From NCBI GenBank assembly GCA_945912145.1, contig CAMEBF010000008.1, positions 12,925-76,924 of the forward strand: a DNA stretch of 64,000 nucleotides, read 5' to 3'. Below are positions 50,963 to 51,327 of this stretch, one piece after another. The notes beneath the pieces were generated by a model. The model worked only from the letters and a program-made list of their open reading frames with translations. It was not told where the DNA came from and did no database searches. The position numbers and the translations under genes were made by a program. Source of the DNA: an uncultured Clostridia bacterium (GTDB lineage Bacteria; Bacillota; Clostridia; Oscillospirales; Acutalibacteraceae). Numbering within the stretch: position 1 is the first letter of the stretch; the number at the start of each line of letters is the position of its first letter.

Positions 50963-51327
50963 AAAGACGCATCCAGCAATTTCTCCTGGATATACAAAGG
51001 ACGGCTCTTTCGAGTGTCCGATGTGTTACCATAAATGCGTCTTGTGTTTGAAAGACACCAACAGCAAATCAGGTTTCCTTGTCAGCTCGTTCTGTACTAC
51101 CGACGGTGTCTTGTCTCAGAAAAGATGCGCACTGCAACAGGAATCGCAATGGTCCTCAGGACGCCTGTTTATGGAACAGGAGATCAAACGGTGAAATTCC
51201 GTTTTTTGCGCAAAACGCATCTTGTATAAAGGCGCCGAACAGCAATCACGACTAGCTTCTGGATAAAGCGGGGAGCTTATAACTCCTGATTTCGGGTTTA
51301 TTCCCGATACGGCGCCTTGTTTTTTTT
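50963..51327 (+). ncRNA. array of four tandem stem-closed structured RNA modules (Y-RNA-like candidates)
   Basis: Each module is AAAG-N5-6 ... N'5-6-CTTGT. The closing helices are 50964-72/51035-43, 51052-59/51105-12, 51122-29/51216-23 and 51229-37/51310-18. The AAG/CTT ends are conserved and the inner base pairs covary. The array ends in T8. No ORF with an RBS is present. Confidence 0.55.
51228..51327 (+). ncRNA. module 4: tRNA-like (YrlA-like) element
   Basis: 9-bp GC-rich closing stem. D-like arm GCTT-CTGGATA-AAGC. A 5-bp arm with the 7-nt loop CTTATAA (U33 and A37 positions fit an anticodon loop). A 4-nt variable region. T-like arm TCGGG-TTTATT-CCCGA. Then T8. Confidence 0.5.

Follow-up and report, generated by a model that had tools for sequence, protein, structure and literature searches.

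The element considered here lies at positions 51228-51319 of a 64,000-nucleotide (nt) stretch of DNA from an uncultured Clostridia bacterium (contig CAMEBF010000008.1); the whole stretch is called the window below, and all positions are its coordinates. The element is the last of four tandem modules that share one scaffold and precede, on the same strand, a gene whose product carries the Pfam domains DUF2828 and DUF7788, and we refer to it as module 4. It is a real, yet partly eroded and degenerate, member of a class of tRNA-shaped modules, and it is not a tRNA. From bacteria to humans, Ro60 has been conserved together with its Y RNAs, and we think it rather probable that module 4 is one unit of a four-RNA array whose members are Y-RNA-like cognate partners of the DUF2828 protein, which is itself best read, from its predicted structure, as a divergent Ro60-like protein. 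From their sequences the scaffold modules look like an uncatalogued family that is common in gut Clostridia and in their large phages.

The fold of module 4 and its tRNA-shaped class

An initial annotation of the window had drawn 51228-51327 as a cloverleaf-like fold, and all of the parts it listed are present when computed from the sequence. They are as follows:

51228-51319, + strand: module 4 as a whole, with scaffold stem, ACAGCAA motif and tRNA-like D, anticodon and T arms (60.9 bits with covariance model R2, and covariation, below); as a closed unit 51229-51318 by the stem finder
51229-51237, + strand: 5' strand of the scaffold stem, AAGGCGCCG, pairing with 51310-51318 over 9 base pairs (bp; pair probability 0.88-1.0)
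51238-51254, + strand: unpaired 17 nt, AACAGCAATCACGACTA, between the scaffold stem and the D-like arm
51239-51245, + strand: ACAGCAA motif in an asymmetric internal loop, conserved in the class and a putative protein contact
51255-51269, + strand: D-like arm, GCTT (51255-51258), CTGGATA, AAGC (51266-51269), aligned to the D arm of R2
51271-51287, + strand: anticodon-like arm, GGGAG (51271-51275), CTTATAA (51276-51282), CTCCT (51283-51287), aligned by R2
Between the anticodon-like and T-like arms, + strand: 4-nt variable region, GATT
51292-51307, + strand: T-like arm, TCGGG (51292-51296), TTTATT, CCCGA (51303-51307), pair probability 0.87-1.0, separated by TA from the scaffold 3' strand
51310-51318, + strand: 3' strand of the scaffold stem, CGGCGCCTT, followed by a conserved G at 51319; CTTG is invariant in the class
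51320-51327, + strand: run of eight T (T8), directly 3' of the stem and G, terminator- or attenuator-like in sequence

The 100-nt stretch 51228-51327 folds at -36.3 kcal/mol (z = -3.8 relative to shuffled sequences), and the outer stem and the T arm dominate its thermodynamic ensemble. The anticodon-like loop, CUUAUAA, has 7 nt with U33 and a purine at position 37 and is closed by a 5-bp stem. The D loop keeps its GG and has C in place of A14, the T loop (UUUAUU) is 6 nt long where the class consensus is TTCGAAT, and the mini-acceptor helix that measures 3-5 bp in most relatives (below) is 0 bp long here. The case for the cloverleaf is made by comparison with other genomes. For this we took 80 bacterial genome loci, one per species, with DUF2828 proteins 58-75% identical, out of more than 7,800 relatives, mostly from Clostridia (labels such as L003, L161 or L273 denote individual compared loci).

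Twenty-five tRNA-like modules, module 4 included, were aligned by MAFFT without knowledge of structure and folded by RNAalifold, which recovers the basal, D, anticodon and T helices with 13 of 20 pairs compensated. A covariance model built from this alignment (R1) finds 35 members that score above 60 bits, and all 208 of its matches, the weaker core-only ones included, are on the gene strand. When the 35 members are aligned by fitting them to the model (the 25-module test being the structure-blind counterpart of these statistics), 96.9% of the pair cells are paired, compared with 37-45% when the partners are slid, and 17 of 22 pairs change on both sides, which none of 500 shuffles reaches; all five pairs of the anticodon helix are compensated in this class. 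The multi-arm fold proposed in the initial annotation is thus supported by covariation, and the reading that it had named as a possible refutation, a simple terminator hairpin with no conserved inner arms, falls as a full explanation because the inner arms are conserved and covary. A second covariance model (R2) was made from 33 relatives with the window left out and searched over both strands of the 64 kb. It matches 51228-51319 at 60.9 bits (E-value 4.4e-12) with the D, anticodon and T arms all aligned, and its only other matches are module 2 (27.5 bits), module 1 (23.5 bits, core only) and module 3.

The sequence signature of the class is also that of a tRNA in large part. CAGC is invariant and ACAGCAA nearly so in all 35 members, and the class keeps U8, A14, G18G19, A21, the G53-C61 pair and a UUCRAAU T loop. 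In the anticodon-like loop U33 and a purine at 37 are usual, the "anticodon" itself being variable and most often CAU, and in most members an acceptor-like mini-helix of 3-5 bp is stacked on the T stem (mean 2.46 bp, versus 1.01 ± 0.17 bp when the partners are shuffled). Relatives of this class are often the module nearest the gene and carry a plainly tRNA-like insert, for example the head of L003, which reads TGGCTAAGTGGTTATAGCA, GATGG-CTCATAC-CCATC, CGCGGGTTCGAATCCCG. L003 belongs to the cultured Hominifimenecus sp. rT4P-3 (NZ_CP167068.1); other cultured carriers of modules are Oscillibacter valericigenes Sjm18-20 (AP012044.1, L069) and Faecalimonas umbilicata DSM 103426 (L078). Several such heads are called tRNA by ARAGORN (L003:2888-2959, Met-CAT; L018:2890-2961; L036:2889-2959), and the Rfam tRNA model scores heads above its gathering threshold (L003 at 52.9 bits, L069 at 53.2 bits), so these modules are probably mis-annotated as tRNAs in public genomes.

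Module 4 draws no such call. ARAGORN finds 0 tRNA genes in the 64-kb window, as the initial annotation had expected; Rfam 15 gives no match anywhere in the window at gathering score; and at E <= 10 on the region 50800-51450 no Rfam family, the tRNA model included, falls on module 4, the same search yielding a weak tRNA match on module 3 and chance microRNA matches on an upstream hairpin. Module 4 resembles a tRNA in having a D arm, an anticodon arm of 5 bp whose 7-nt loop has U33 and a purine at 37, a variable region of 4 nt and a T stem of 5 bp. Unlike a tRNA it has no 7-bp acceptor stem, discriminator or CCA site, features that are absent from the class as a whole, and its scaffold stem stands 17 nt away from the D arm. 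The earlier description of a tRNA mimic rather than a tRNA is supported by these results, since the relatives' heads are called tRNA and the fold covaries while module 4 itself goes uncalled; the roles that it suggested for such a mimic, as bait, sensor ligand or scaffold, are hypothetical ones. Of the deviations from a real tRNA that it had listed, the 6-nt T loop and the missing CCA stand; the 17-nt insert and the acceptor-like stem do not count as such, being the invariant scaffold of the family to which we now turn.

The scaffold family and its linkage to DUF2828 genes

The stem finder places four tandem units at 50963-51319, in the 450-nt gap between two upstream genes of the WYL family and the DUF2828 gene. 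Those preceding module 4 are as follows:

50963-51044, + strand (closed unit 50964-51043): module 1, stem AAGACGCAT/ATGCGTCTT, motif CCAGCAA, 55-nt insert
51051-51113, + strand (closed unit 51052-51112): module 2, stem AAGACACC/GGTGTCTT, motif ACAGCAA, 37-nt insert with TTCCTTGTCAG
51121-51224, + strand (closed unit 51122-51223): module 3, stem AAGATGCG/CGCATCTT, motif variant ACTGCAA, cloverleaf-like insert

In every window module a stem runs from AAG to CTT and is followed by G, and (A)CAGCAA stands 2 nt past the 5' strand; modules 1 to 3 are closed by a stem of the module 4 type without a T-run. Module 4 fits the family stem, A-AAGRYRC.../...GYRYCUU-G, as AAGGCGCCG-AA-CAGCAA ... CGGCGCCTT-G, and its spacing from AAG to CAGCAA is 11 nt instead of 10 because it has one extra stem pair. 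Module 3 reads CTGCAA where the others read CAGCAA, and a 98%-identical relative (L161) keeps the canonical ACAGCAA at that place. Because this scaffold is common to all four units, the "acceptor-like stem" and "17-nt insert" of module 4 are the core of the family.

The inserts recur between genomes as well. The insert motif of module 2, TCCTTGTCAG...CTGAC, is found in at least five other loci (L033, L034, L065, L013 and L020). Module 3 holds a second cloverleaf-like insert, with the T-like loop GGTGAAATTCC, and the Rfam tRNA model gives it 20.8 bits (E 0.11, 51145-51211), the sole Rfam tRNA signal of the region. The class to which module 3 belongs has a GAUGC stem and the T-like loop GGUGAAAGUCC (also given as GGUGAAAUUCC) and is kept in at least nine other loci; an alignment of the window and nine loci has 12 of 21 pairs compensated.

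How closely is the scaffold tied to the DUF2828 gene? Across the 80 bacterial loci, ACAGCAA is present in 1-5 copies in the 600 nt upstream of nearly every DUF2828 gene. We searched for the core pattern AAG-N5-N0-5-CAGCAA, which requires no pairing, and then sought an 8-bp partner within 200 nt: of 250 core motifs upstream of DUF2828 genes 167 have such a partner, compared with 11 and 6 when the five variable bases are reversed or shuffled, respectively. CAGCAA begins 10 nt after AAG in 157 of the 167 stem-bearing modules, an A.G pair flanks the scaffold stem in 144 of them, and stem positions 4-8 covary over all 167 (G-C with A-U, C-G with U-A). Of the modules that a stem-aware search detects in the same loci, 226 are on the gene strand and 8 on the opposite strand, nearly all upstream; 76 of the 80 loci have at least one module.

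Neighbouring modules are often 3-15 nt apart, and arrays contain up to 8 modules and reach at least 1.5 kb upstream, with some modules downstream of the gene. In L028, L030 and L039 (Mogibacterium, Anaerovoracaceae; positions about 500-2900) a series of 15-19 tRNA genes leads straight into modules and the DUF2828 gene, and the inserts of some of these modules are entire tRNA-Leu-like units, acceptor stem included. Their presence in tRNA operons makes it likely that the modules are processed stable RNAs, and this location, the recurring insert classes and the 3-15 nt spacing together favour processed stable RNAs over a single mRNA leader. A repeat-spacer array of the CRISPR kind was considered for the tandem units and rejected, as the two ends of a unit form a covarying stem and the same insert classes recur from genome to genome; a T-box or riboswitch leader was likewise set aside, there being no Rfam match and the modules occurring in multi-copy arrays, also inside tRNA operons. 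The tRNA operon of L030 that ends in ACAGCAA modules and the DUF2828 gene also contains a ROOL RNA (677-1251, 310 bits).

For the phage side we compared 80 of 468 IMG/VR relatives of DUF2828, mostly 39-45% identical with four at 60-62%; many of these relatives are on contigs of 80-170 kb. In the phage loci the gene strand has 214 copies of the core motif and the opposite strand 7, and the motif lies upstream of DUF2828 on the same strand in 77 of the 80. Because RtcB and WYL genes are rare in these loci (5 and 2 of 80, respectively), which keep the RNA core, the core tracks DUF2828 and not RtcB or WYL. The phage DUF2828 genes are flanked by genes for RNA ligase, metallophosphoesterase and SPFH protein, among others. 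In the reverse direction, a scan of viral sequences for the correctly spaced core gives at least 121 pattern matches in 120 stretches, with a stem in 38 among those listed; an off-by-one control pattern with one extra N, AAAGGCACNNNACAGCAA, gives 66 matches, 2 with a stem. Of the 38 listed stem-bearing viral modules, 18 have a DUF2828 gene no more than 4 kb away (in 14 cases no more than 403 nt away), and each of the 18 shares the strand of its gene.

In phages the head is often no more than a hairpin whose loop is anticodon-like, as with CUUGAAA (23 occurrences), CUCAUAA (10) and CUUUUAA (7); we take CUUUUAA, CUCAUAA and CUUGAAA to resemble the anticodon loops of tRNA-Lys(UUU), tRNA-Met or Ile2(CAU) and tRNA-Ser(UGA), respectively. 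Among insert hairpins with a 7-nt loop, 24-33% fit Y-U-NNN-R, a count that takes in T loops, compared with 7% in shuffled inserts. Other phage elements have a circularly permuted head in the order T arm, hairpin, D arm (L273:4065-4166, L273:4170-4283, L260:2815-2930 and L313:1836-1937), and those of L273 and L313 are ACAGCAA modules. The Rfam model of YrlA, the Y RNA family with a tRNA-mimicking domain, scores these permuted heads at 29-48 bits, below its gathering score of 69 bits, with E about 4e-9 in local search. To judge from these sequences, the permuted phage heads link the ACAGCAA scaffold to the classical YrlA RNAs. L273 also has a tmRNA gene (4727-5082, 156 bits) a few hundred bases from its YrlA-like modules, within a dense tRNA array.

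A predicted Ro60-like protein and comparison with known Y RNAs

The gene that follows the array and its immediate successor are as follows:

51355-52845, + strand: DUF2828 + DUF7788 gene (Pfam), product Ro60-like by AlphaFold2 and Foldseek, proposed partner of the modules
52897-54129, + strand: RtcB RNA ligase gene (Pfam RtcB, E 2.3e-55)

Module 4 ends about 35-37 nt before the DUF2828 start on the same strand. RtcB is downstream on the same strand in 53 of the 80 bacterial loci, mostly immediately 3' of DUF2828. The AlphaFold2 model of the DUF2828 protein (mean predicted local-distance difference test, pLDDT, 74.8) begins with about 290 residues of helical repeats and ends in an alpha/beta domain. 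When it is compared with the Protein Data Bank (PDB) by Foldseek, the best nine matches are all Ro60/TROVE structures, full length, with E-values of 7.5e-8 to 6e-5; they include 9kop, Deinococcus radiodurans Rsr (2nvo), Ro60 of a Thermus phage (9l5y) and the RNA-bound Xenopus Ro60 structures 1yvp and 2i91, and for 9kop, 2nvo, 9l5y and 1yvp the probability is 1.00. Their template-modelling (TM) scores are about 0.5, except for 2nvo at 0.35. From rank 10 onward the matches are partial (about 200-230 columns) and mostly to vWA-type domains. Since the best matches are to Ro60/TROVE over the full length, the modelled protein, helical repeats plus a vWA domain, is best read as a divergent Ro60-like protein.

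Y RNAs have a stem formed by their 5' and 3' ends that flanks a bulge with a conserved motif, and they are encoded beside the Ro60 gene, often in tandem (PMC4201824, PMC12135203). The modules invite comparison above all with YrlA (RF02553; Chen et al. 2014, PMC4201824), whose small RNAs are likewise found in tandem by a Ro60-type gene, on its strand and often with rtcB, and likewise have a closing 5'/3' stem, a conserved internal-loop motif and a tRNA-mimic domain (with canonical T and D arms in YrlA); the best of the permuted phage variants, moreover, match the YrlA model at 45-48 bits. The differences are as clear. The family motif is ACAGCAA, whereas that of YrlA is GNCGAA(N0-1)G (PMC4201824); the class consensus is AAAGGCACC-A-ACAGCAA, and the GCCGAA at 51234-51239 of the window is not kept in relatives and lacks the next G. 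The second helix of the YrlA stem is absent here, the arms of module 4 come in the order D, anticodon, T with the scaffold in the acceptor position, whereas the YrlA order is T, closed acceptor hairpin, D, and the putative partner is DUF2828, which has no Pfam TROVE match. Neither the YrlA nor the Y_RNA model matches 50800-51450 at E <= 10, and neither reaches its gathering score in any of 20 bacterial loci. Judged by its sequence, then, module 4 is not a member of YrlA: motif, arm order and Rfam model all fail. The likeness to YrlA that the initial annotation had pointed to survives as regards placement, beside a Ro60-like vWA protein and RtcB, and is lost as regards membership. We also considered homology between ACAGCAA and the YrlA motif GGCGAA, because one Rfam alignment overlays ACAGCAA on the YrlA 5' strand; that alignment breaks the stem, and we regard it as an artefact.

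By its description in PMC4201824, Yrn1 of D. radiodurans is the topologically closest known RNA. There too the Ro-binding stem is formed by the ends of the RNA at the place of the acceptor, and the head includes a T arm together with an "anticodon arm" whose stem has 5 bp. Yrn1 differs in its partial D-loop features, its 6-nt "anticodon loop" and its GGUCCGA-like Ro site (PMC4201824), where in the present class the D arm is complete, the anticodon-like loop has 7 nt and the scaffold motif is another, a comparison made by description only. The arrangement of the genes is similar in Thermus phage phiLo, in which two Y-RNA-like genes, Yrl1 and Yrl2, are directly upstream of a phage Ro60 homologue (PMC12135203; PDB 9l5y) that is among the best structural matches of our DUF2828 model. 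The phiLo RNAs combine CGAA with plain hairpins as heads, whereas the present modules have ACAGCAA and, in many cases, a head that resembles a tRNA or an anticodon stem-loop.

The scaffold falls within no Rfam 15 family, either in the window or, at gathering score, in 20 bacterial loci, and we found no description of the modules in the literature, which in our search did not cover Burroughs and Aravind 2016; the literature on DUF2828 that we found consists of unrelated plant and tardigrade papers. Burroughs and Aravind reportedly described RNA-repair operons in which an RNA ligase is combined with a Rot/TROVE or SPFH scaffold and a cognate Y- or tRNA-like RNA, with lateral transfer and phages involved; the phage DUF2828 loci, with an RNA ligase, a phosphoesterase and an SPFH gene beside them, agree with this general scheme.

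Proposed function, alternatives and neighbouring genes

The features upstream of the array that enter into the proposal are as follows:

48745-49989, + strand: WYL-domain regulator gene, first of a pair (Pfam WYL, E 1.6e-7; 53 of 80 loci have a homologue upstream on the same strand)
49986-50897, + strand: second WYL-family gene, with WCX domain (Pfam WCX, E 3.3e-5; 58 of 80 loci have a homologue upstream on the same strand)
50878-50916, no strand assigned: hairpin AAAAAGTTGCG...CGCAACTTTTTTT with A-run and T-run flanks, a perfect stem over the WCX stop codon
50920-50948, + strand: promoter-like site ATGATA-17-TACAAT (9/12 in a consensus scan), about 15 nt before module 1

By its sequence the hairpin resembles a bidirectional terminator that would keep the regulator genes apart from the RNA array; its symmetric stem also draws chance Rfam alignments. 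The promoter-like site, a candidate on sequence grounds, would serve the array as follows. Transcription would start there, probably under the two upstream WYL regulators. Because the same scan finds no promoter-like site in the approximately 35 nt between module 4 and the DUF2828 gene, the array would be co-transcribed with DUF2828 and rtcB: the module 4 stem and its U8 would stop part of the transcripts, and read-through would give the DUF2828-rtcB mRNA. The precursor would then be cut into single modules. In each of these the scaffold (an 8-9 bp stem, AAGRYRC.../...GYRYCUU, closed by A.G and with the ACAGCAA internal loop) would be the protein-binding site, like the stem and CGAA bulge of a Y RNA, and carry a variable head, which in module 4 would be a tRNA-like cloverleaf with its arms in tRNA order and the scaffold stem at the acceptor position. 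The Ro-like protein would hold the scaffold while the head offers the likeness of a tRNA to factors that act on tRNAs (RtcB, nucleases or modification enzymes) as part of a response to damaged tRNAs. We infer binding, processing, termination and the role of the head by analogy, and in particular the scaffold as a protein handle and the head as a tRNA-shape display by analogy with Ro60-Y RNA complexes (PMC4201824, PMC12135203).

Several observations weigh against module 4 as a Y-RNA-like partner of a Ro60-like protein. On its own sequence the cloverleaf that the initial annotation drew is possible and not preferred, because its energy, -32.4 kcal/mol, is less favourable by 3.9 kcal/mol than that of a competing inner fold, and the ensemble gives the D and anticodon arms a probability of about 0. 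Module 4 is eroded (6-nt T loop, no A14, no mini-acceptor helix), and in the 98%-identical relative L161, which has the same module 4, a single change leaves an A.C mismatch in the anticodon stem. A profile search of DUF2828 against PDB sequences returns no Ro60 and nothing relevant, Pfam reports only DUF2828 and DUF7788 on the window protein and no TROVE, and the link to Ro60 thus depends on a model of moderate confidence (pLDDT and TM values above). Twenty of the 38 listed stem-bearing viral modules have no DUF2828 gene in the stored stretch, so some are perhaps unlinked, or the stored stretch is too short. Finally, the spacing of the proximal modules from the start codon also suits a cis-acting leader.

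Such a leader, which we consider unlikely, would make the gene-proximal module an attenuator or regulatory element of the mRNA, either a site of autoregulation by the DUF2828 protein or a stem and U-run that terminates unless a factor or ligand intervenes. The gene-proximal modules end 22-57 nt before the start codon in 52 of 57 cases (68-118 nt in the remainder), module 4 is followed by T8, the 8 nt that follow CTTG include at least 5 T in 23 of 57 gene-proximal modules (40%) and in 12 of 187 internal ones, and the lack of a promoter-like site between module 4 and the gene is as a leader would have it. Thirty-four of the 57 proximal modules, however, have no T-run, and arrays of up to 8 modules that reach at least 1.5 kb upstream, stand in tRNA operons or sometimes lie downstream of the gene are not what a leader predicts; one scaffold with many unrelated heads fits a set of trans-acting RNAs better. 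Given the 22-57 nt spacing, the proximal module may have a cis-regulatory role alongside that of a free RNA.

We give very little weight to the idea that module 4 is a decaying tRNA gene or pseudogene that came to lie in this intergenic region by chance. Its D, anticodon and T arms, the relatives called tRNA by ARAGORN (L003, L018, L036) and Rfam (L003, L069), and its loss of T-loop and D-loop signature bases would all agree with this, but no class member has a 7-bp acceptor stem, CCA or discriminator and all have the scaffold and ACAGCAA, compensatory changes maintain the structure over 35 loci from distinct species, and position and strand relative to DUF2828 are conserved. A plain intrinsic terminator of the upstream unit, with a meaningless inner sequence, has next to no claim on our belief: the GC-rich 9-bp stem followed by T8 and the dominance of outer stem and T arm in the ensemble are what it would explain, while the inner arms are conserved and covary, the upstream genes have their own hairpin and T-run at 50878-50916, and three further modules are closed by a similar stem without a T-run. 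A terminator scan makes no call at the 9-bp stem and T8 of module 4, because the stem closes a 72-nt multi-arm "loop".

Beyond the proposal of Y-RNA-like partners there is a more speculative extension, which we hold to be doubtful: the modules and their protein could be "programmable" Ro-type ribonucleoproteins, in which one handle displays swappable tRNA parts as decoys or baits for anticodon nucleases, together with RNA ligases. The heads would then be whole cloverleaves, permuted YrlA-like heads or bare anticodon stem-loops, and the users would be gut Clostridia and many phages of 80-170 kb, with RtcB in the cells and ATP-dependent ligases in the phages. If true, this would be a new layer of the tRNA-centred arms race between phage and host. 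Should the Y-RNA-like array with its Ro60-like protein alone prove right, it would represent a second and very large Ro60/Y RNA branch, with more than 7,800 DUF2828 proteins and 468 phage-contig matches. It would offer an easily recognised RNA handle with a natural library of swapped heads from full tRNA mimics to single anticodon loops. The diversity of the heads and the links to RtcB, WYL, phage RNA ligases and tRNA operons would make a tRNA-mimicry function directly testable, and annotation could draw on a model for RNAs that at present are overlooked or wrongly called tRNA. The significance lies chiefly in the family and its phage branch, and less in the module 4 copy.

Two open reading frames, 50937-51194 and 50562-51032 (85 and 156 amino acids), overlap the RNA modules and are most likely not genes. 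On the other side of the array, RtcB is followed by genes for a protein with TPR, TIR and RCC1-repeat domains (54532-56850) and an SPFH/Band_7_1 protein (56893-58806). The TIR and SPFH proteins of the window have no homologue in the 80 related bacterial loci; an unrelated Band_7 SPFH gene flanks DUF2828 in phages, so the SPFH gene of the window may be no random neighbour.

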